A stretch of 14,810 bases of DNA from Candidatus Bathyarchaeota archaeon (GTDB lineage: Archaea > Thermoproteota > Bathyarchaeia > Bathyarchaeales > Bathycorpusculaceae): the NCBI GenBank assembly GCA_963739305.1, contig CAVTZU010000029.1, positions 1-14,810 of the forward strand, written 5' to 3'. The notes beneath the pieces are model-generated. The model ran no database searches, was not told the DNA's origin, and saw nothing but the letters and a program-made list of their open reading frames with translations. Below are positions 1-14,358 of this stretch, in pieces. The position numbers and the translations under genes are program-made. How positions within the stretch are numbered: the first letter of the stretch is position 1; every line of letters starts with the position of its first letter.

Positions 1-800
1 GGTGTTGAGTTGTTTATGACCCATTATGATTCGTACTGTTTCGGTGTTCTGTGTTCTGTGTAGTTGCTTGGTGCAATAGTAGTGTCTCAAGTCGTAGAGT
101 CGTATGTTGTGGATTGATGGGTCGTTGAGTTTCTTGGCTAGTTTGTTTCTGAATCGTCTGAAGTGTTCGCCGTATCTTTTGACGTTGCCTTTGAATAGTA
201 GGTCGTTTCCTTTCTGAGGTTGTGTTTGCGTATGTAGTCTTGGATTCTTCCCATTAGTTCGGGTGTGATGTTTGTGGTGGTCTTGGGTTGCATCCTTTGG
301 TTATTCGTGCGGTGATGGTGTTTGTTTCTGGGTGGATGTCTTTGACTTTGAGACCTTTCTCGCCGTAGTATTTCGATAGGTCTTAGTCCTGTTCGTCTGT
401 GATAGTCAATCAGTATTGAGAGTCTGCCTTTGGCTGATGCAATTAGCATTTGTACCTTTTCTTGTGTTGGTGGTTGGATGGTTGTTGGTTCGGGTGTGTA
501 GATGGGTTTTTCCCAGAATATTTGATTCAGTTTACAGTATGTTGCATAGCAGTCACATAGCTTAGATTTGTAGTTGTTTGTGATGGGTCTTCCGTTTGCT
601 TGTTTGTATCGGGCTATTGCTAATTCAACGGTTTTTGTGTCGTTCAAGCTCTGATCGTATTGCTAGTGCTTTCAGGGACTTCTCGTACATTCGGATTGTG
701 TTTGGACTTCTTCCTTTTCCTTCGAGGTGTAGTAGAAGCTTTTGTATACTTGGTAGTTGTTGGATGTATTGCGGGTGGGCGAGTAGCTCAGCACGGATTG
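1..800 (-). pseudogene. Tyrosine recombinase/site-specific integrase, multiply frameshifted, 3' end outside the window
   Basis: Manual translation across frames gives LLLHLEGKGRSPNTIRMYEKSLKAL (N-terminal core-binding-like), TGLRPIEI (box I Arg), GLKVKDIHPETNTITARITKG (catalytic Lys region), and LFKGNVKRYGEHFRRFRNKLAKKLNDPSIHNIRLYDLRHYYCT...IIMGHKQLNT (box II and GH motif). At least 4 frameshifts are needed. The track ORF 138..647 covers only part of it. The start is uncertain; the frame stays open antisense through the tRNA 5' half to about 810. Confidence 0.9.
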
Positions 801-908
801 GGTCTTTGCCTCAATGCTTCAAGTGGCGGGTGCTTTTGTAAGGGGAGTCACGGATAGAGCACCAGCCTCCTAAGTTGGGGGTCGTGGGTTCAAATCCCAC
901 CTCGCCCG
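777..908 (+). tRNA. tRNA-Arg(CCT) with a 57-nt insertion in the D-loop
   Basis: Acceptor GGGCGAG(777-783)/CTCGCCC(901-907); D-stem GCTC(786-789)/GAGC(857-860); anticodon stem CCAGC/GTTGG with loop CT-CCT-AA (anticodon 869-871); T-arm GTGGG-TTCAAAT-CCCAC; discriminator G908; no encoded CCA. Removing one CACGGAT copy plus the intervening DNA restores a normal D-loop AGCACGGATA. Confidence 0.88.
792..855 (+). repeat. 7-bp direct repeat CACGGAT (792-798, 849-855) bounding the D-loop insert
   Basis: Read directly from the sequence; offset 57 nt. Confidence 0.9.
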
Positions 909-2455: not shown

Positions 2456-4858
2456 TCACTTGAGAGTCCAAACGAGTGCGACTAGACGAACTGTAATGTT
2501 TGTTTTGGTTGGTGTGACTGAGATGTTTTCTAGGTCTTCGGTTAATGGGTTAGTTTTCGTCTCCAACGCGTTCACTTCCGACTGAAATTGCGTCTCAAGA
2601 TTGGCCCTTTCCTGCTGCAAAGTCTTCAAGTTTGCTTCAGCGCCTTCTTTGTCACGTGATTCCTTCATGCTGCGGCCTATTTCGCGAGCGGTTCTTGTGG
2701 CGCCGCTACCGGTCTTCCTTCCGAGGAAGGAGCCAAGGAGCGTTGCTCCAAACGACACGGCAGCTTGATATTTCTCTCCCTTTGCTTGACTTTCCTGTTC
2801 TTGTAACACAGTCGTTGCACGCCTGATCCGTTCGTCGAGTCTTGCGAAGTCTGAACTGTATTTTTGTCTCAGCTTTTCGACCTGTTGGTCGCGCTGTTCC
2901 CTTCCTTTCTGTTGAAGGCGTATTCTGAAATCCCGTTCTGTCTCATCTGGTCCTGAGAATTCGTTGAGATTGCCGCTTTTCATCAATTGCAGTTTTTGGG
3001 TTCTGAACAGCCAATTCGAGAAGTCTTTTGACCAAAAGCCATAATTTTTTGGTATAGCGGCAGCTGACGGCAGATCAGCAAATGAGACTCCCTGACTTGG
3101 TGCGTTGCTCAGTTCTGAGACCTTTATGTTGGCCTCTCTTGAATTGTCCCAATTGACAGCTATAGGGTCATTTGTAATGGAAGTGAGGAATACCAACTCT
3201 TTTGTAGTGTCGATTCGTGCTTTTGTGTCGACAAACCGCACTTGCGCTGTCCCAAGAATAGCGGGTTGATAGATCTCTTCCGTCTTCATCAATTGGTTCT
3301 GGCCACTCGAGACAAAATATTGTGGCACATCGGGAGGCACGACGGGTCTTTGAGGGATTCCTTTGAGGCTTGGCGACAGGGCTGTTGGGGTTGAGGGAGT
3401 CGATAGTGCTGCCGTTTGTGTTTGAGAGGCTGTCGTTTGTTGGGTTCTTAGTGGGTCAACGAGAATTCTGATCTGATCTCTTGTTAAGGGGCCACGAAGG
3501 TAGGACATTGCCCATCTGGTTTCGAATACTACCGGATTGTCCTCATGGACATCGTTCATAAGAAATACTCGATTCCCAAGAGCAGAGAGAGTCTGGTCCA
3601 TGCTCTGACGATCAAACTGTCCTTGACTTGTGAGGGCAGCGCTTTCGAGTCCGTCTAGTACATGTGCCTTGTCTTGTTCAGTCTGCAGCCGTCCGAGAAA
3701 CCACGTACCAGCATTCGAAAGGGCTTTGTAGTCTAGATCGACTGGATTTTGCGTCGCAAGTACGATTCCAAGACCGAAGGCACGTGCCTGCTTCAGGAGC
3801 GTCAGCAAAGGCGTCTTCGACGGTGGATTGGCCAAAGGTGGAAGGTAACCGAAAACTTCATCGATGTAAACAATCGAGCGCAGACTTGCAGTTCCAGACT
3901 GTGTGCGCATCCAGCCCACTATCTGATTGAGTAATAGAGATACGAAGAACATCCGTTGCGTATCGTTCAGGTGTGCAATGTAGAATATTGATACTTTTGG
4001 TTTGCCGCTCGTGGAATGGAGCAGTTTGTTGACGTCAAGTGGATCTCCTTCGAGCCAGAGGCTGAACCCTGGAGCTGCAAGAAGATTGTTCAGTTGCATA
4101 GCTAGTTCAAATCGGTTCTTGGATGGATAGAATGATTCTATGTCAAGGACCCCGATGCGACTCATAGGCGGAGACTGAATGAGTTGAATGAGTCCACCGA
4201 TGTCTAAGTCTTCGCCACGCTGCCAGGTTGCAGCAAGTATGGTGGAGATCAGTATATGTTCCCTTGAACGGATTGGGTCAGCTTCTATCCCCAGCAATCC
4301 GAGAAGGCTTGTGACCGTGGTTGTGATTCTCTCTTGGAAGAGTTCATTGTCTTCCCTGATCTCAGGTGTGGGAGCCGCAAAAGATTTCAGAATCGAGATT
4401 GGGAGACCCGCGTTGCTGCCTGGGGTGTAGATGGCAAAGTCTGCAGAATCACGAAGGCGTTGGATGCGCTTGCCGTCCTCCCCCCACTTTAGAAGACCGT
4501 TTTTCCATAGGTCTGCCTGCTGATTGGCGTATTCCTGCGTTGAGACCCCCTTCTTGAGGGCTTCTTCTTCATTTATCCAAGGAAGAAAATCTTGACTTCT
4601 CAATTCGGGAAATGTCAGCAGAAGATTTGTGATGTCTCCTTTTGGATCGATCACGATGGCTGGAATACCATCGATTGCCGCTTCCTCAATGAGAGACATG
4701 CACAGACCCGTCTTCCCGCTACCAGTCATACCGATGCAAACCGCATGTGTGACCAAATCCCTCGAATCATACAATAACAGGTCTTCCAATCCTGATTTGT
4801 TACGAACATCATAGAGACGCCCAAGGTAGAAGACTCCTAGCTTCTCAAAATCCTGCAT
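2456..4858 (-). CDS. HerA/FtsK-superfamily P-loop ATPase (DUF87/DUF853-like) with C-terminal coiled coil
   Basis: Walker A GMTGSGKT, IVIDPKGD, Walker B YIDEVFG, QARAFG (Arg finger region), LATQNP; 800 aa; SD AGGAG upstream. Confidence 0.9.
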   Translation of the reverse strand: MQDFEKLGVFYLGRLYDVRNKSGLEDLLLYDSRDLVTHAVCIGMTGSGKTGLCMSLIEEAAIDGIPAIVIDPKGDITNLLLTFPELRSQDFLPWINEEEALKKGVSTQEYANQQADLWKNGLLKWGEDGKRIQRLRDSADFAIYTPGSNAGLPISILKSFAAPTPEIREDNELFQERITTTVTSLLGLLGIEADPIRSREHILISTILAATWQRGEDLDIGGLIQLIQSPPMSRIGVLDIESFYPSKNRFELAMQLNNLLAAPGFSLWLEGDPLDVNKLLHSTSGKPKVSIFYIAHLNDTQRMFFVSLLLNQIVGWMRTQSGTASLRSIVYIDEVFGYLPPLANPPSKTPLLTLLKQARAFGLGIVLATQNPVDLDYKALSNAGTWFLGRLQTEQDKAHVLDGLESAALTSQGQFDRQSMDQTLSALGNRVFLMNDVHEDNPVVFETRWAMSYLRGPLTRDQIRILVDPLRTQQTTASQTQTAALSTPSTPTALSPSLKGIPQRPVVPPDVPQYFVSSGQNQLMKTEEIYQPAILGTAQVRFVDTKARIDTTKELVFLTSITNDPIAVNWDNSREANIKVSELSNAPSQGVSFADLPSAAAIPKNYGFWSKDFSNWLFRTQKLQLMKSGNLNEFSGPDETERDFRIRLQQKGREQRDQQVEKLRQKYSSDFARLDERIRRATTVLQEQESQAKGEKYQAAVSFGATLLGSFLGRKTGSGATRTAREIGRSMKESRDKEGAEANLKTLQQERANLETQFQSEVNALETKTNPLTEDLENISVTPTKTNITVRLVALVWTLK

Positions 4859-6309: not shown

Positions 6310-7152
6310 TTAGACTTGGCATTTGGGGCAGACGAACACTTTTCCTCCCCCAAGGCTCAGCTCTTCTATAGGCGTCCCGCAAACTGGGCAGTCCTTTTTT
6401 CTCATGTTTGGCCCCATCGCTGGAACGTACCCGCCTTGCTTCTGATACAGGTCCAGAAATTGGTTTTTTCCGTTCAACCGGAGTCTCTCTCGAAGGACAA
6501 GTTTAACAGCGTTGTAAAGGGCTTTTTGCTCATTCAAGTTCAACTCGGAGGCTTTCCGCTTTGGGTGCAGCTTAGCCCTGTATATTACGTCTTGAAAGGC
6601 GCTGTTGCTCAGCCCAACTAATACAGCATCTTTGCCAACGAGTACAGATTTGAGCGCTCTGTTGTTGTCTGCTAAGAGTTTCGAAAACCGCTCGAACGTG
6701 AAATTCTCATCCACAGGTGAGAGCATCTCAGGATTGAAATCCCGCTTGAACACGTACGAGCTCGCTAGTTCATCGTCCTTCAACACTCTCAGCCCTCCCA
6801 TGCTAGTGAACCTCACCGTCAACACGGTTTTGTCGCAAAAATCAATCCTTAAATGGTATTTTTCTGGAACCGTCGTTTCGCATGAGTGATAGAAAATCTC
6901 GCCTCCGTACTCAGGGGCTAGAATGATGTTCATTTTGCCATCGAGTTTCACGAGTATGGCGTTCCCTCTCGAGGTGACAGACTCAACTTCTCGGTTTACA
7001 AGCTGATCAAAAGCTTTGGTGTCCTTGTTTATGAACCCAGTTTTCTGCAATCTTTCGCAGTCTCGAAGATGATAACTTCCGATGCGTTTGCCACGGAGTT
7101 CTTTGTTCATCTGTTCTGCGAGGATCCTTGCTTCCGGAAGCTCGATGCTCAT
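6310..7152 (-). CDS. Fpg/Nei-family DNA glycosylase-like protein (H2TH plus C4 zinc finger)
   Basis: N-terminal MSIELPEA, H2TH-like LKSVLVG...GLSNSAFQDVIYRAKLHP, C-terminal CPVC...CPKC. Confidence 0.85.
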   Translation of the reverse strand: MSIELPEARILAEQMNKELRGKRIGSYHLRDCERLQKTGFINKDTKAFDQLVNREVESVTSRGNAILVKLDGKMNIILAPEYGGEIFYHSCETTVPEKYHLRIDFCDKTVLTVRFTSMGGLRVLKDDELASSYVFKRDFNPEMLSPVDENFTFERFSKLLADNNRALKSVLVGKDAVLVGLSNSAFQDVIYRAKLHPKRKASELNLNEQKALYNAVKLVLRERLRLNGKNQFLDLYQKQGGYVPAMGPNMRKKDCPVCGTPIEELSLGGGKVFVCPKCQV

Positions 7153-7489
7153 CTGAAGTCTCCAATACACCCATTTTTGGTAAACCACTCTTAAAATCGT
7201 TTGTGCATTGATCGATGAGAGAAAGTTTAAGAACTCTCAGAATTTATTGTTGCTCGGTTTGTCTTGCAAATTCATACTCAGCCACGAGCACAACTAGCCC
7301 GTTCCGTGCCGAAAGAAATATTTTTCTGAACTGACCACATCAAGTCCTTCAGGATAGTGGAATCAGCAGACGGCAAGGTGTATGAGACTTGAAATCGAGT
7401 TACCCTTTACTGGTGCGGAAAATCCGGCAACAAACCGTTCTGCGGCAGCAGTCATTACCCCGAATGACTTAAAGAGGTGAAGACTTCAA

Positions 7490-7813
7490 ATGAGTAAAAT
7501 CAACCTTGAATATAATCTGGACAAAGTACTGAAGTCGAAAGACAAATCGATCGTTCTCTTCTACGCTTCTTGGTGTCCCTTTTCTCAGAGGTTCTTGCCC
7601 GTGTTCAAAAAATACTCCCGAGCCAAGCCTGATAGTTGCTTGGAAGTCGTCACCGATGACAAAGCGAGTCTTTGTGAAAAATACAACGTGGACGTAGTCC
7701 CCACGGTGCTTATCTTCGAGAAAGGCAAAGTCACGAAGCGGTTGGACGGAGCGGCAGGCATCGGACTGACAGAGAAACAACTGCTCGATTTCGCCAAAAA
7801 ATCCGAACGTTAA
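7490..7813 (+). CDS. Thioredoxin-family protein (CxxS active site)
   Basis: VLFYASWCPFS, cis-Pro motif VVPTVLIFEKG; SD GAGGTGA. Confidence 0.88.
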   Translation: MSKINLEYNLDKVLKSKDKSIVLFYASWCPFSQRFLPVFKKYSRAKPDSCLEVVTDDKASLCEKYNVDVVPTVLIFEKGKVTKRLDGAAGIGLTEKQLLDFAKKSER

Positions 7814-7937
7814 ATCGCTGCATTTCAAGCAGACAGGACGAGCTTTCGTCAGCTGCTAGATCTGATCTAGGATCGGATCTTCAAAGTTATGGCGCCAATG
7901 GGACACGTTGAGACGCGGCACTAAAAGCTGATCGAGG

Positions 7938-8690
7938 TCACATTCTCAGCACTCCAGAAAGCACGTAGGTCAATGCGAATATCACCGCGAATCCAACCGC
8001 GCAGGCGCCAACCGTGAGTGCTGGAGGGTTCTTGGCGTGAGCTTCTGGCAAGAGGTCACTTGCCCCCAAATAAAGAAAGCCACCGGCAAAAAATGGCAGA
8101 AGGAGAACTATGTAGAACTGCTGAACCTGGATGAAGAGCGCCACAACGGCTCCAAAAACCGGCGCAACCGCATCCAAGAACAACATTCGCAAGGAATTTT
8201 TCAGGGAGTTTCCGGAATTCAACATCACGGTAACAGTGCTAAGCCCATCCGTGAAGTCGTGACATATCACTGCAATCGCTATGATGACTCCTACGTGGAT
8301 GTCGGCTTGGAAACCAAACCCGATGGCTAGACCGTCGATGAAACTATGGACCGAAAGCTCGGAGGTCGCAAAAAGGCCGCCTACGGGGTGCTTGACTTCA
8401 ACGTATTCGCCATCCTTGCTGAAAACATGAGCGCTGATTAGCCGAGAGATCACGTAGAGGAAAAGGAACCCGACGACTGTCAAGGCCATAACGTCTTCAA
8501 GAAGTACGTTCACTGCCGTGGCAAGCTTGAATGTCTCAGGCAGCAGATCCAACAGAGAAGTCGTGATCAATATCCCAGCTGCGAAGGCGCCCAGAACTCC
8601 AATGTTCTTCCTTCGTCTTGCTGCAAATGTCCCTCCGAGCAAAGTAGAAAAGCAAGTAACGACAGCCAGCAAGAGCGCGTAAAGGTTCAT
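7938..8690 (-). CDS. ZIP-family divalent metal transporter
   Basis: Multiple TM helices with HSFIDGLAIG, HDFTDG and FLYLGASDLLPEAH motifs. Start is ATG 8690 or GTG 8711. Confidence 0.9.
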   Translation of the reverse strand: MNLYALLLAVVTCFSTLLGGTFAARRRKNIGVLGAFAAGILITTSLLDLLPETFKLATAVNVLLEDVMALTVVGFLFLYVISRLISAHVFSKDGEYVEVKHPVGGLFATSELSVHSFIDGLAIGFGFQADIHVGVIIAIAVICHDFTDGLSTVTVMLNSGNSLKNSLRMLFLDAVAPVFGAVVALFIQVQQFYIVLLLPFFAGGFLYLGASDLLPEAHAKNPPALTVGACAVGFAVIFALTYVLSGVLRM

Positions 8691-8759
8691 ATCGCTATCC
8701 TTTCTTGACACAAGCTACTTAATCATTTTCGTAAAGGAGCCATATCTTGAATGTTGTCT

Positions 8760-9524
8760 TCATCTACTAGTCTTTTTCGCGCGCGCGGGAACTTTTCTTC
8801 CTGTCAACAGTTTCATCCTGGTTTCTCTGACGGCAATTCTGGGAAGCACGTCTTCATTTTCCTCCAGATATCTTTCGACCCTCTGCCTGCTGTGCTTGAT
8901 TAGATCCCTTAGCAGCCATGATATCGCCTTCGTACTCAGAATGTTTCGCTCGGACTTTAATCTGTCAATGTTCATGAGAGCCACGTCTGTCAGCCTTGAA
9001 TCTTCCGAGTCTCTCACTGGTTTGATAAGCAAAACCAGACTCGCGCGTCTCTTGTTAACGTTGCTATCCGAAGCAAGCTTGGTCAACAACCTCTTCCATT
9101 CTTTCCAGTTGCCCAAAACCTCAGTTGCAGTGAATTTCGATTGGCACAACGAATCAACTTCGGCCCACCCGTGCAATCTATTCAGCCAAACGTCAATGTA
9201 CTTCGGTTCAACATGCTTCCTTAGTTTGGGCATTGACTCAAGCAACTCGCCAGCCATCGAAATCTCGTTAATCGATTCTCCCTGATACAGAGAGCTTAAC
9301 AATTCAATGTACTGAGACATCGAAAGATCAGAATGCCTTTTTACCCATTCTTTTACGATTCTTTTCTCGGTATCTGCTCCGAGCACGTAGCATACCTTGT
9401 CAGTTCCAATATACCTCAAGAGCTTCTCTTTCTCATCCCGAGACATATCGCGCGCTTTTGCCTTCGCTTCGGACACGAGATCAAAGCGATATTTGTTCAA
9501 AACCTTTCGATTCAACTGTCCCAA
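8760..9524 (-). CDS. DNA alkylation repair protein (AlkD-like, HEAT-like repeats)
   Basis: GWAEVDSLC, SDSNVNKRRASLV, KAISWLLRDLIK, RIAVRETRMKL motifs. Exact start uncertain. Confidence 0.82.
   Translation of the reverse strand: MGQLNRKVLNKYRFDLVSEAKAKARDMSRDEKEKLLRYIGTDKVCYVLGADTEKRIVKEWVKRHSDLSMSQYIELLSSLYQGESINEISMAGELLESMPKLRKHVEPKYIDVWLNRLHGWAEVDSLCQSKFTATEVLGNWKEWKRLLTKLASDSNVNKRRASLVLLIKPVRDSEDSRLTDVALMNIDRLKSERNILSTKAISWLLRDLIKHSRQRVERYLEENEDVLPRIAVRETRMKLLTGRKVPARAKKTSR
8778..8787. repeat. (CG)5 run in the last codons of the AlkD-like gene
   Basis: TTTTT-CGCGCGCGCG-GGAA; encodes the PARAK tail. Confidence 0.9.
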
Positions 9525-9566
9525 TCCTGGTTCATAGCAACGTCTTCTTCAGGGGCAGGGGCTTGC

Positions 9567-9998
9567 TTATTCTTGCGGAGGCCTAGTGTAGACTTCGATA
9601 ACGTGGTTATCAGGATCACAGAAAGAAGCTGCATAGTATCCTGGCACGAATTCTGGATGCTCTTCAGGAGGGAACAAAGGTTCAAACCCATTTTGCTTCA
9701 TATTTTTAGCCACCGTGACCACGCTCTTCTTATCTGGAACAAAGATGGCTAAATGCTCTGTAACCACAAACTCCTCTCCAGTAGGAGCAGCACACTTGAC
9801 CCTCACATCTCTCTGCTCGCCTAGCCACACTTGAAAATTCTGATTCGAGAATCCGAGAACCCCTTTCGAGTCAACAATGACTCTGCAGCCGAGAGTTTTC
9901 AACAAGATCTCATAGAACCTTCTCGCCTTTCTGAGGTTTGTTACTTCGATTCCAACATGACCAATTGTGGCTCGTTCTTCTTTTTTCTCAGGCACCAT
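9567..9998 (-). CDS. VOC/glyoxalase family protein
   Basis: IGHVGIEVTNLRKARRFY, EHLAIFV, GYYAASFCDPDNHVIEV. Confidence 0.9.
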   Translation of the reverse strand: MVPEKKEERATIGHVGIEVTNLRKARRFYEILLKTLGCRVIVDSKGVLGFSNQNFQVWLGEQRDVRVKCAAPTGEEFVVTEHLAIFVPDKKSVVTVAKNMKQNGFEPLFPPEEHPEFVPGYYAASFCDPDNHVIEVYTRPPQE

Positions 9999-10068
9999 GC
10001 GTTACCACGTGAACTTTAAGGGATGCTTTGGTTTCATAAGCTTTGCCTACCGCTTGAGGGTAACTCCT

Positions 10069-10076
10069 GCGCGCGC
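10069..10076. repeat. (GC)4 run
   Basis: Intergenic, between the divergent VOC and MPG genes. Confidence 0.9.
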
Positions 10077-10180
10077 TTCTTAAGAGCACGTGACTGCTCC
10101 ATCATCATGACAGACCGCCTAACTATGCCGACAGCGGCTTGTCGCAGGGTTTATTTCGAATGGGTTCCCACTATCCATCC

Positions 10181-10786
10181 ATGATTCTGAAAAGAAGCTT
10201 CTACGAGCGAAACACTTTGACAGTGGCAAAGGATCTCCTTGGAAAACTCTTGGTCCATGAAACCCCGCTAGGTATGACTGCAGGCAAGATCGTTGAGACC
10301 GAAGCATACATGGGTCCCGAGGACAAAGCTTCACATGCCTTCGGAAATCTCCGTACGAAACGGACCGAAGCTCAATTCGGACCAAAAGGACACGCCTATA
10401 TCTATTTTGTCTATGGAATGCACTATTGTTTCAACGTTACCAGCGGAATAATCCCCGGGAAACCCGACGCAATCTTGGTGAGAGCACTTGAGCCAGTTTT
10501 GGGGGTGGACATAATGATTAAACGCAGGGATATCTCTGACCGAAATACGACTAACTTGACAAATGGACCCGGCAAGCTCTGCAAGGCAATGGGTATGTCA
10601 ACAAAACAGAATGGAGCCGACCTATGTGCTCCACCGCTTCACATCGACGGAGGCCAAAGGATACGAAAAATCGAGATCGTTCAAACAACGCGTATTCACG
10701 TGGATTATGCAGGTGAATGGAAATACGCACCTTGGAGATTTTTCGTAAAGAACAACCTGTACGTTTCGAGACCAACTGGAAAATAG
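10181..10786 (+). CDS. mpg: 3-methyladenine DNA glycosylase, AAG/MPG family
   Basis: VAKDLLGKLLV, IVETEAYMGPEDKASH, YIYFVYGMHYCFNV, ILVRALEP, NGPGKLC, PWRF. ATG 10181 lies about 25 nt after TTTATTT. Confidence 0.93.
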   Translation: MILKRSFYERNTLTVAKDLLGKLLVHETPLGMTAGKIVETEAYMGPEDKASHAFGNLRTKRTEAQFGPKGHAYIYFVYGMHYCFNVTSGIIPGKPDAILVRALEPVLGVDIMIKRRDISDRNTTNLTNGPGKLCKAMGMSTKQNGADLCAPPLHIDGGQRIRKIEIVQTTRIHVDYAGEWKYAPWRFFVKNNLYVSRPTGK

Positions 10787-10857
10787 GTCGCGCCCGTCAG
10801 AAATCGTGTGCGTTAGGTACAAATAGGAACACTGTCGCTTAGCATTCTGTGGAGAAT

Positions 10858-11208
10858 ATGTCAATCTGGAAAACAGACAAATGGAACTATAGAATAACCA
10901 GTAAGCGATCCATTCTGATCAGGAACAAGAGCATAGATCAACACAAAGTTGGTGCAGTGGATCTGACAACGAAGCTCCCTATCGTGTTCGAAGTCTCCAA
11001 GGATGTTTCAATGCAGGCAATCAAAGTAGGCAAAAAATATCTCGTGACGGTCAGAATCTACACCGCCAAATCGACGGAGAACGTGAGCGCAGACTATATT
11101 GAACTCTTTCAGGTGCTCGACGTGGATCAACCGGCAGAAAACTTTCTGTCAGCAACGTGCTGTTATCCAAACCTTATCCGATTTGAACTCGAGGACATAG
11201 AAACATAG
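10858..11208 (+). CDS. Hypothetical protein
   Basis: Open frame of about 116 aa filling the gap between mpg and tag; GGAG before ATG 10858; no family recognised. Confidence 0.65.
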   Translation: MSIWKTDKWNYRITSKRSILIRNKSIDQHKVGAVDLTTKLPIVFEVSKDVSMQAIKVGKKYLVTVRIYTAKSTENVSADYIELFQVLDVDQPAENFLSATCCYPNLIRFELEDIET

Positions 11209-11257
11209 TCAATAGTTTCCTGATAATTGAAGGAAATCAGGATTCTGCAGAACGAAA

Positions 11258-11869
11258 CTATCGGATCGTTTTGTTCTTGGCGCCGCTTTTGCTGGTCATT
11301 TTCCTTATCTGTTCATAGCGGAAGCAGTGAACTAAGTGATCATTCACTAAACCAGCACCTTGCATGAAGGCGTAGCAGATGGTTGGTCCTACGAACTTGA
11401 AGCCTCTTTCCTTCAATTTTTTGCTCATCACCCTGCTTTCTGAAGAGTCAGCTGGAAGATCTGCAAAGGTTTTAAGAGCATTGTCGATTGTTTTTCCTCG
11501 AACAAACTTCCAGACAAAGGCATCAAAAGAACCGAAATTATTCTGAATCTCCAGGAATTTGCGCGCGTTATTCACAGTCGCCTGTATTTTCGCCCTGTTA
11601 CGAATGACTTCAGGATTGTTCATAATACGGTTGATGTCTTTCTCGGTGTACTTCACTATCTTTTGCGGGTCGAAATCGCTGAATGCTTTCTTCATTGCTT
11701 TTCTTCTGTCAAGGATGAGTTTCCACGTTAACCCTGCCTGAAAACCTTCGAGTACTAATAACTCGAACAATCGCTTGTCATCATGAAGAGGAGTACCCCA
11801 TTCGTCGTCATGATAGGCGATGAAAAGCGGGTCAGTGGTTTTCCAGCACCTTACAAGATGCTTTTTCAT
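11258..11869 (-). CDS. tag: DNA-3-methyladenine glycosylase I
   Basis: RCW...YHDDEWG, LFELLVLEGFQAGLTW, IRNRAKI, LKERGFKFVGPTICYAFMQGAGLVNDHLVHC. Confidence 0.95.
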   Translation of the reverse strand: MKKHLVRCWKTTDPLFIAYHDDEWGTPLHDDKRLFELLVLEGFQAGLTWKLILDRRKAMKKAFSDFDPQKIVKYTEKDINRIMNNPEVIRNRAKIQATVNNARKFLEIQNNFGSFDAFVWKFVRGKTIDNALKTFADLPADSSESRVMSKKLKERGFKFVGPTICYAFMQGAGLVNDHLVHCFRYEQIRKMTSKSGAKNKTIR

Positions 11870-13167: not shown

Positions 13168-14358
13168 ATGCAAAATATGCAAAATAATACCTTCAAAGAC
13201 TTGTCACTAAGCAGTGAGGTCATGAAAGGTATCGAAGAGCTTGGATTCACAGATCTATTTCCAATTCAGGCTCAAGCGATAACGCCGTTGCTTCAAGGCA
13301 AGGACGTTATCGGTCAAGCACAAACAGGAACAGGCAAAACCGCCGCCTTCGGTATACCGATGATTGAGCGGGTAAACCCTGAGGTCAAAGAAATTCAAGG
13401 TTTGATCCTGGTTCCGACTCGAGAACTTGCAGTGCAAGTTGCTGATCACGTACGGCGACTCGCAAAGTACGCGGGAGTGAGGGTTCTGCCGGTTTACGGC
13501 GGAGAACCCATAGAAAGACAAATTCACGCCCTGAGAGGCTGCATTCAGATCATCGTCGGAACGCCAGGCCGAGTCATCGACCTGATTGAAAGGCGAATAC
13601 TTGATCTGGGGTTTGTGGGAGTTGTCGTTCTAGATGAAGCAGATCGCATGCTTGATATGGGCTTCATAGAAGACATCGAGTACATACTGCGAAAAGTGCC
13701 CAGAAATCGGCAGACCAGTCTTTTCTCAGCTACGATCGACGCGCAAGTGATGAGAATCTGCAATAGGTACATGAAGAATCCCGAAAAAATACTCGTAAGC
13801 AAGGATGAAATAGCCCTCACTCAGATGAACCAGTACTACATGGTGGTAAACCCGTACGAGAAGTTTGAAGTTCTCTGCAGCATACTGAACGAGAACCACA
13901 TAGAACGTGCTATAATATTCTGTAAAACCCGAACGGACACGGGCATTCTGGCTGAAAAGTTGAAAGACAAAGGCTATGATGCAAAACCGCTCCATGCTGG
14001 GCTAACTCAACCACAACGAGACTGCGTCACCGACCTGTTCAGAAGAGGAAGGCTGAAGTTCCTAATCGCGACTGACGTCGCTGCCAGAGGATTAGATATT
14101 CAAGGAATCACCCACATAATAAACTTCGACGTACCAATGGAGGCGTTGGTTTACTTCCACCGAATCGGAAGAACGGCCAGGATGGGCAGCGAAGGCACGG
14201 CTATAACCCTCGTCAGTTACGGTGAAATGTCGGATTTCAACAGCATAAAGGCTATGACCAAGACAAGAATCCAGGAAATGCAAGAACCAGAGTCGAGCGG
14301 TGAGGGAAGCCAAAGAAGCCCAGTGTCCTATATTGCTGCACCAAAACCTCGATGGTAA
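13168..14358 (+). CDS. DEAD-box RNA helicase
   Basis: Q motif, AQTGTGKT, PTRELA, TPGR, DEAD, SAT, ATDVAARGLD, HRIGRTAR. Confidence 0.96.
   Translation: MQNMQNNTFKDLSLSSEVMKGIEELGFTDLFPIQAQAITPLLQGKDVIGQAQTGTGKTAAFGIPMIERVNPEVKEIQGLILVPTRELAVQVADHVRRLAKYAGVRVLPVYGGEPIERQIHALRGCIQIIVGTPGRVIDLIERRILDLGFVGVVVLDEADRMLDMGFIEDIEYILRKVPRNRQTSLFSATIDAQVMRICNRYMKNPEKILVSKDEIALTQMNQYYMVVNPYEKFEVLCSILNENHIERAIIFCKTRTDTGILAEKLKDKGYDAKPLHAGLTQPQRDCVTDLFRRGRLKFLIATDVAARGLDIQGITHIINFDVPMEALVYFHRIGRTARMGSEGTAITLVSYGEMSDFNSIKAMTKTRIQEMQEPESSGEGSQRSPVSYIAAPKPRW

Follow-up and report, generated by a model that had tools for sequence, protein, structure and literature searches.

Bathyarchaeia tRNA-Arg(CCT) genes carry a large family of D-loop inserts that are probably relaxed bulge-helix-bulge introns and may derive from duplication within the host gene

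Inserts in the D-loop of otherwise complete tRNAs are represented by the intron class of Aeropyrum pernix tRNA-Thr2(UGU), which has bulge-helix-bulge or relaxed (hBH / HBh') splice motifs and an alpha2-beta2 splicing endonuclease (EndA). According to the available text of PMC3241643, residue K44 and its loop are required for D-loop introns and relaxed motifs, and the Aeropyrum enzyme (APE-EndA) cuts the D-loop intron in vitro. The reference motif is the bulge-helix-bulge (BHB), given in the available text of PMC4090602 as a 4-bp helix with two 3-nt bulges in which the 4-nt exon strand ends two nucleotides before the cut. Three further systems are close. Intron transposition in Thermoproteales (Fujishima et al., 2010, as presented in PMC4090602) involves gain of non-canonical BHB introns at the DNA level, with many related introns per lineage. 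A tRNA-Thr gene of Caldiarchaeum with an attP-intron element combines, in the account available from PMC3293823, a direct repeat of a tRNA 5' fragment with intron gain and population heterogeneity at one locus. Intervening sequences in the D-arm of Asgard tRNAs are missed by standard callers and were gained repeatedly; the available part of that preprint places about a third of them at canonical BHB motifs and states that the route of arrival is open (bioRxiv 10.64898/2026.10.13.758758). Here we describe a 57-nt insert in the D-loop of a tRNA-Arg(CCT) gene on contig CAVTZU010000029.1 of Candidatus Bathyarchaeota archaeon (assembly GCA_963739305.1). The stretch that we analysed, called the window below, comprises 14,810 nt of this contig. 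The insert is probably an RNA intron cut at 798|799 and 855|856. Judged from sequence comparison, it is not a foreign mini-element but one of many related inserts that interrupt the D-loop of Bathyarchaeia tRNA-Arg(CCT) genes.

This locus shares with the Aeropyrum-type introns a D-loop insert in an otherwise complete tRNA, a helix that closes the intron with cuts one nucleotide before and six nucleotides after it, and a host that appears to encode an APE-EndA-like catalytic subunit with the specific-loop lysine as well as a second, non-catalytic paralogue. By contrast, the central helix here has the same hexamer on both strands with no more than 2-3 standard pairs, three unpaired D-loop nucleotides lie opposite the 3' bulge, the introns contain copies of the host tRNA, and the family is known from sequence alone. 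The related Thermoproteales introns occur in different tRNA types in the account available, whereas here a single type is involved, the intron is single-copy, and the likeness is to its own host gene and in register. In Caldiarchaeum, as far as it is described in PMC3293823, a 1.8-kb element that encodes a recombinase lies between the repeats, whereas here the period equals the intron length (49-57 nt) and there is no such element or recombinase. The Asgard inserts share with ours the escape from standard callers and the repeated gains, and they belong to another phylum. The class of object is an ordinary one, an EndA-type non-canonical intron, and the family is undescribed and unusually informative.

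Reading of the sequence showed that the insert parts positions 777-798 from 856-908, the two pieces of a perfect tRNA-Arg(CCT). The first piece reads GGGCGAG-UA-GCUC-AGCACGGAU, which comprises the acceptor 5' strand, positions 8-9, the D-stem 5' strand and the D-loop, and the insert-free orthologues have the same 22-nt pattern. A preliminary description of this DNA had noted two intact and complementary tRNA halves, a 57-nt insert and a CACGGAT repeat; this was borne out, and ARAGORN accepted the joined pieces as a 75-nt tRNA-Arg(cct). With default settings, ARAGORN found no tRNA in the unspliced window, and the Rfam tRNA model matched 841-908 alone with 29.6 bits, just above threshold. The acceptor pair A782:U903 is changed on both sides compared with G001, G002 and G008 of the same genus, where it is G:C; this indicates that the two gene halves stayed complementary. 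Exon 2 has no encoded CCA. Upstream, the TATA-like motif TATACTTGGTA is common to 16 distinct syntenic gene versions, and from its position the element at 740-749 would serve as the promoter.

In a genome-wide search the insert was present in one copy in the source genome. It is bounded by CACGGAT at 792-798 and 849-855 with a spacing of 57, the sole direct repeat found by a repeat search of 740-910. By a hand estimate, a boundary repeat of at least 7 nt is expected in about 4 of 10,000 random inserts. This repeat makes the product identical for eight cut registers, from a cut after 791 to one after 798, so that the placement of the cuts is singled out by comparison within the family alone.

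The family was taken as the loci, from metagenome and genome collections plus relatives, that share a 23-nt piece of exon 2, and all family counts are lower bounds. At least 243 loci carry this piece. Their distinct versions include at least 96 with a D-loop insert, at least 28 with an insert after position 9, at least 25 with no insert and at least 14 cut by a contig end. Among the matches listed, 72 of 80 genome records were from Bathyarchaeota, Bathyarchaeia or Bathycorpusculum. We analysed 93 distinct D-loop-insert versions with inserts of 30-99 nt, leaving out L059 (insert at another position); the introns form 56 clusters at about 80% identity. We also read the best tRNA-like match in each of 19 related genomes. 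Ten were insert-free, five had an insert after position 9, one had a canonical 37/38 intron and one was another tRNA; a D-loop insert was found in two of the 19, G008, with the promoter context of the window, and G010. The genus holds insert-free, D-loop-insert and position-9-insert tRNA-Arg(CCT) genes together. In five loci with the insert after position 9 (L002, L011, L015, L016 and L019), a near-copy of the acceptor 5' strand lies a few nucleotides upstream in the leader, and by eye the 3-4-bp central helix of the insert covaries with the acceptor variant (CGAG/CUCG vs CGGG/ACCG).

All insert-free orthologues keep a 10-nt D-loop, AGYACGGAYA. Many inserts end in CACGCAG, CACGAAA, CACGCAA, CACGTAG or TCTGTAT rather than in GGAU, and a cut after GGAU together with one before AGAGC is the sole register that restores the conserved D-loop in all 93 versions. 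In the window this register falls at 798|799 and 855|856, where actual cleavage would take place, and 798 scored best among the eight same-product registers. Another placement would use GCUC (786-789) and GAGU (845-848) as the central helix, with cuts after 791 and 850 that remove 59 nt and leave an 8-nt D-loop. The helix has four standard pairs and ARAGORN accepted the product as a 73-nt tRNA-Arg(cct). Against this, the placement is without flanking helices where these are required, register 791 scored 8 compared with 12 for 798, the D-loop of every insert-free orthologue has 10 nt, and such cuts are impossible in family members with an intron ending in CACGCAG and similar. We consider these other cut sites very improbable.

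In the following, i2 is the second intron nucleotide, L is the intron length, and L-6 and similar terms are positions counted from the intron 3' end. The helix that closes the intron, h', begins one nucleotide past the 5' cut and ends six nucleotides (4+2) short of the 3' cut, and these distances give the canonical BHB spacing; we hand-checked the BHB geometry on the canonical intron of L020. The pair i2:L-6 is formed in 93 of 93 versions (GC 55, AU 21, CG 10, UA 4, GU 3), and the eight positions after it are paired in 88, 85, 89, 85, 72, 77, 70 and 63 of 93. Pairing in h' was 90% in the family register compared with 36-47% when the partner was slid by 1-2 nt. There are 80 distinct 6-bp h' helices, of which 70 have at least five pairs, as against 13% for strands from different genes. 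A register after G796 (GGAC/GUCU), which by hand appears perfect in G008, was ruled out because it fails in most family members (L-6 and L-7 statistics).

The exon strand of the central helix, H, is A17 C18 G19 G20, with L-2 to L-5 as partners. L-1 is A and L-3 is G in 94 of 94, L-4 is C in 80 and U in 14, and L-5 is A (56), C (30), U (6) or G (2). Both C and U at L-4 pair with G19; H always holds C18:G and G19:Y. The heptamer CACGGAU provides the H strand and the first two bulge nucleotides on both strands, preceded by a C that in copy 2 closes h', so that the 7-nt repeat represents two symmetric half-sites of the motif. The splice sites lie between two helices at canonical distances, with the D-stem as the outer helix, as in the relaxed HBh' / hBH form, and h' is kept by compensatory change. 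In the unconstrained minimum free energy (MFE) fold of the whole precursor, the D-stem, at least two H pairs and at least four of six h' pairs occurred together in 63 of 91 versions. On these sequence grounds the motif is a relaxed BHB and not a strict one. The preliminary description had reasoned from the missing BHB that the insert may not be a classical intron; this is overturned at the level of the family, where the mature tRNA follows from a relaxed BHB that is canonically spaced and shows strong covariation.

For the present-day gene, the best reading is that EndA splices the insert out of the RNA in the ordinary way. Transcription of the whole stretch would be driven by the TATA-like element (740-749), and the intron ends of the precursor (800-807 with 842-849) would pair as h', with the D-stem (786-789/857-860) as the outer helix. 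The two ACGG copies (793-796 and 850-853) would meet antiparallel in a short H, with C794:G852 and G795:C851 between A/G and G/A. In this arrangement the dyad-related bulges of a relaxed BHB would be A797-U798|U799 and A854-U855|A856. An alpha/beta-type endonuclease would cut both bulges, and RtcB would join the exons to give the 75-nt tRNA.

Several results weigh against splicing of the insert in this manner. The strict hBHBh' definition (two 3-nt bulges and a 4-bp helix) does not describe the motif. Only two standard pairs are present in H in 51 of 93 versions, three in 41 and four in 1. Since H never changes on its exon side, its support is conservation together with one-sided C/U variation, not two-sided covariation. 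The 3' bulge faces three unpaired D-loop nucleotides, A14 G15 Y16 (A790-C792 in the window), which are not deletable because they are part of the tRNA. In the window itself, seven of eight h' positions pair (G800:C849, G801:U848, U803:A846, C804:G845, U805:G844, U806:G843 and U807:G842), with five G-U pairs and a G802/G847 mismatch, and H has Watson-Crick pairs at C794:G852 and G795:C851 and purine-purine oppositions at A793/G853 and G796/A850. The MFE of the window, -52.3 kcal/mol, belongs to a different fold, compared with -42.3 kcal/mol when the motif is forced; the ensemble probability of the h' pairs is about 0, and the window is one of the 28 of 91 versions whose MFE lacks the motif. In a crude scan of 2064 candidate cut pairs, the family register ranked 88th. 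The preliminary description had reported no clean BHB in the single sequence, and with this rank and this free-energy minimum we came to the same result. No spliced joint was seen in the contigs of four sequencing runs, in which 821-837 was uncovered. As regards the single-sequence search (hand trials and the 2064 cut pairs), the better-scoring decoys, such as 798|799 with 841|842, yield no tRNA, and the search is uninformative without the family.

These properties raise the alternative of a decaying gene, in which a once-spliced intron has an eroded motif and the precursor misfolds. The gene would then be a pseudogene or weakly productive, and AGG would be read by another tRNA or by an unassembled second tRNA-Arg(CCT). 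The fold that is 10 kcal/mol more stable than the motif-constrained one, the G/G mismatch in h' and an 8-bp competitor helix (829-836 with 856-863) all favour this idea, as do the 97% completeness of the assembly and a second Arg(CCT) locus in relatives (G010 has two matches) whose flank is missing from the source assembly. On the other hand, the exons are flawless and keep the compensated acceptor pair, the intron 3' end keeps all family invariants with seven of eight h' positions paired, the promoter motif is conserved, and this copy is not alone in its unfavourable MFE, which 28 of 91 versions show. We regard decay as unlikely, and the window is a weak member of a well-supported family. Related introns have GGCUGGU-type segments complementary to the anticodon-stem 5' strand, which may be compared with the 829-836/856-863 pairing in the window. 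By eye, no C or D boxes of a box C/D guide RNA were seen in the intron.

The source assembly (2.3 Mb, 97% complete, 7.8% contamination) contains two EndA genes (PF01974), in the regions 127119-127364 of contig C11 and 64826-65080 of contig C32. The 186-aa EndA matches PDB 3p1z_B, 2cv8_A, 3ajv_B and 2zyz_B, with E values from 5e-43 (3p1z_B) to 2e-31, and has a lysine aligned to K44 of the Aeropyrum enzyme. We take these four structures to be crenarchaeal enzymes; the table of matches gives the molecule name alone. From reading of the sequences, the 192-aa paralogue has an alanine at the position of the catalytic histidine. The splicing endonuclease is thus predicted to be of the alpha/beta type. 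RtcB is present twice with equal scores, on the near-duplicate contigs C1 and C21. Contigs C1 and C15 likewise have the same tRNA-Leu(TAG)/Thr(GGT) pair. These near-duplicates fit the 7.8% contamination and could be two strains or redundant contigs.

As to the need for this tRNA, AGG makes up 18.6% of the arginine codons in 752 long open reading frames (ORFs). The preliminary description had left room for a second tRNA-Arg(CCT) in the genome; apart from this gene, the 97%-complete assembly yielded no CCT anticodon arm with a T arm behind it. In relatives, Arg(CCT) also occurs at a locus of another kind, and G010 has two matches. The upstream flank of this second locus was not found in the source assembly, which may therefore have missed a second copy, and no Rfam family was found in the flank. 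In the contigs of runs X1, X2 and X15 on 600-1100, loose ends before 843, 849 and 850 point to other insert variants of the same gene, among them a position-9-insert form in an RNA library contig.

The boundary repeat also suggests events at the DNA level, and the preliminary description had favoured a mini-element or scar. According to this idea, a 57-bp mini-insertion with a 7-bp target or crossover duplication interrupts the gene, and its excision from DNA would restore it. The perfect 7-bp direct repeat at spacing 57, exactly at the boundaries of the insert, is what an att scar would show, and tRNA genes are known integration targets, as described in the accessible text of PMC3293823. By contrast, the insert has no other copy in the genome, a Pfam scan of the 13 window ORFs found no integrase or transposase, no recombinase, element remnants nearby or insert at other loci were found, and the window holds a single copy of the tRNA 3' end. 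The precise 57-bp deletion suggested as a check was not seen in the contigs of the four runs, a limited sample, and no window-type leader without an insert occurred among the 16 distinct syntenic versions, also a limited sample. Boundary repeats in the family range from 0 to 9 nt in length, and the 93 diverged versions have compensatory changes that keep an RNA helix. An insert of this kind, to be removed from DNA, is the least credible of the explanations that we considered. Of the earlier proposal, the part that stands is historical, in that the repeat looks like a scar left at the DNA level; the mini-element or integrase att scar does not stand (single copy, no recombinase in the window), nor does the idea of an att-site remnant (no second tRNA 3' end in the window, no precise-deletion allele seen). 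For this scar, an internal tandem duplication within the tRNA gene is a better explanation than site-specific recombination. At 2456-4858 on the minus strand, 1.5 kb downstream of the tRNA gene, there is an 800-aa ORF with weak HerA/DUF87 and TrwB-type P-loop matches.

The idea of duplication comes from other members of the family. The last six nucleotides of the intron equal those of the exon in 32 of 93 versions, the last seven do so in 13, and boundary repeats of at least 5 nt occur in 58 of 93. The 55-nt intron of L137 shows repeats of 20 nt (80%) and 18 nt (78%), both with a spacing of 55, and L138, with an intron of 49 nt, shows a repeat of 15 nt (93%) with a spacing of 49. In L194 (intron 68 nt), 21 nt (100%) recur at a spacing of 55 and 9 nt (89%, GTAGCTCAG / GTAGCTTAG) at a spacing of 64. 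The spacing thus equals the intron length in L137 and L138 and nearly does so in L194. Across the family, 7-mers shared by an intron and its own tRNA peak at tRNA positions 16-22 (13-15 of 93, about 0.8 in shuffles) and 43-56 (up to 28 of 93, about 4 in shuffles). Local similarity of the intron interior to exon 2 had p <=0.01 in 21 of 93 versions, and collinear similarity to the start of exon 2 had p <=0.05 in 34 of 91. In the 10 nt before the terminal hexamer, at least six matches to tRNA 7-16 were found in 9 of 91 versions, compared with 1.4% of control 10-mers. With the terminal hexamer excluded, ungapped identity between positions p and p+L was 31.2%, compared with 20-28% at 24 other offsets, and L was the best offset in 19 of 91 versions. 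The intron copy tracks the T-stem variant of its exon in 19 of 20 cases, which are related sequences and not independent. These in-register repeats and family statistics fit an internal tandem duplication in which one unit is now the intron.

Two versions, L097 and L191 (240-312 in each), are insert-free tRNA-Arg(CCT) genes at the promoter of the window. Their 5' leader has a module, ..AAGTGGCTGGTA.., directly before the intact tRNA, and the same module sits inside the D-loop introns of syntenic relatives. The link of the window to duplication is that its intron is homologous to those of L070, L076, L180 and L133 (z 10.4 to 6.2). Within the intron of the window, the tRNA-like module at 821-833 taken alone is not significant (z about 0), while in related introns up to 21 of 21 nucleotides are identical to the exon.

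Other results speak against duplication as the origin. The intron of the window has no significant similarity to its own tRNA beyond the 7-mer (z 0 to 1.2), and L is not its best offset. Neither in L137, L194 and L138 nor in the window did Tandem Repeats Finder report a repeat of 49-68 nt. Global alignment of the introns to a 'tRNA 21-56 + 1-20a' model reached z >=3 in 11 of 93 versions, and the control for module order was unfavourable (33 better, 50 worse). Overall, we tentatively propose that the whole Bathyarchaeia tRNA-Arg(CCU) D-loop intron family, including the window, may have been born by internal tandem duplication of about 55 nt (positions ~7-60) and not by insertion of foreign DNA. 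The 7-nt repeat of the window would then most likely be the last visible remnant of such a duplication.

The proposed route from duplication to intron would be as follows. The D-stem 5' strand of copy A and the 3' strand of copy B would form the true D-stem, whereas the 3' strand of copy A and the 5' strand of copy B would form a pseudo D-stem that becomes h'. The D-loops of the two copies would lie opposite one another and be joined by pairing of their self-complementary CG core. With this dyad in the RNA and the dyad-related cuts of the endonuclease, the same position would be cut in both copies, so that exactly one unit would be removed and the tRNA restored. In most versions A14 G15 Y16 are lost from the copy in the intron (the window has a ...GUC-ACGGAU ending), and L138 keeps them, paired with new partners. 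These may be two different later adjustments, loss or re-pairing, that bring h' next to H.

In the part of the literature covered, with few subscription journals, we found no proposal of self-duplication of the host gene as an origin of tRNA introns. Direct repeats near all kinds of introns are reported in the available text of PMC11782384, with four archaeal examples and a loose 80-bp window, and we did not rely on them. A further copy of an exon beside an insert is seen on contig C27 of the source genome (about 14189-14205), where the 5' end of an interrupted tRNA-Gln(TTG) gene has two copies of AGCCCGG 10 nt apart.

Introns of this kind escape gene callers, and annotation of the lineage must cope with them. 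Because one tRNA type offers about 100 diverged intron versions, some with in-register copies of the host tRNA, together with insert-free alleles at the same promoter, a model of intron gain becomes testable. If the proposed origin is true, a duplication within a tRNA stem-loop would be 'pre-adapted' to become a BHB intron and could represent a route by which tRNA genes in general acquire introns. Such a gain would be recognizable from a direct repeat at the two splice sites whose spacing matches the length of the intron, and the model would explain why D-arm inserts are often without a canonical motif.

Table 1. Coordinates of the tRNA-Arg(CCT) gene and of the predicted splicing features in the window.
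Feature	Position	Strand	Remarks
TATA-like putative promoter element	740..749	+	TTTTGTATAC; about 30 nt upstream of the tRNA start
Exon 1, tRNA positions 1 to 20a	777..798	+	U8 A9; D-stem 5' strand 786-789; D-loop AGCACGGAU
Repeat copy 1, CACGGAU	792..798	+	A793-G796, exon strand of predicted central helix H; A797 and U798, first two nucleotides of predicted 5' bulge
Probable non-canonical intron, 57 nt	799..855	+	Between tRNA positions 20a and 21; sole register fitting all 93 family versions
Predicted helix h', 5' strand	800..807	+	Partner 842-849
Degenerate tRNA-like module	821..833	+	AAGTGGCGGGT (821-831) resembles exon AAGTTGGGGGT; aligns with the GGGGTCGWGGGT module of related introns
Competitor segment	829..836	+	8 bp with exon 856-863 in the free-energy minimum; rivals the D-stem and the 3' splice site
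Predicted helix h', 3' strand	842..849	+	Partner 800-807
Repeat copy 2, CACGGAU	849..855	+	C849 closes h'; A850-G853, intron strand of predicted H; A854 and U855, first two nucleotides of predicted 3' bulge
Exon 2, tRNA positions 21-73	856..908	+	A856, third nucleotide of predicted 3' bulge; D-stem 3' strand 857-860; anticodon CCT 869-871; T arm 884-900; acceptor 3' strand 901-907; discriminator G908

In the rest of the source genome, ARAGORN with the intron option found no tRNA for Lys, Phe, Tyr or Trp and none for Arg(CCT) or Arg(TCT), and it gave several implausible huge introns. Rfam gave 47 tRNA-like matches, several of them partial. Non-canonical introns seem to be widespread in this genome. 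Farther along the window there is a base-excision-repair cluster at 6310-11869, with a Fpg/Nei-like gene (6310-7188, minus strand), an AlkD-like DNA_alkylation gene (8760-9524, minus strand), a methylpurine glycosylase gene (10139-10786, plus strand) and a Tag-type methyladenine glycosylase gene (11258-11869, minus strand).

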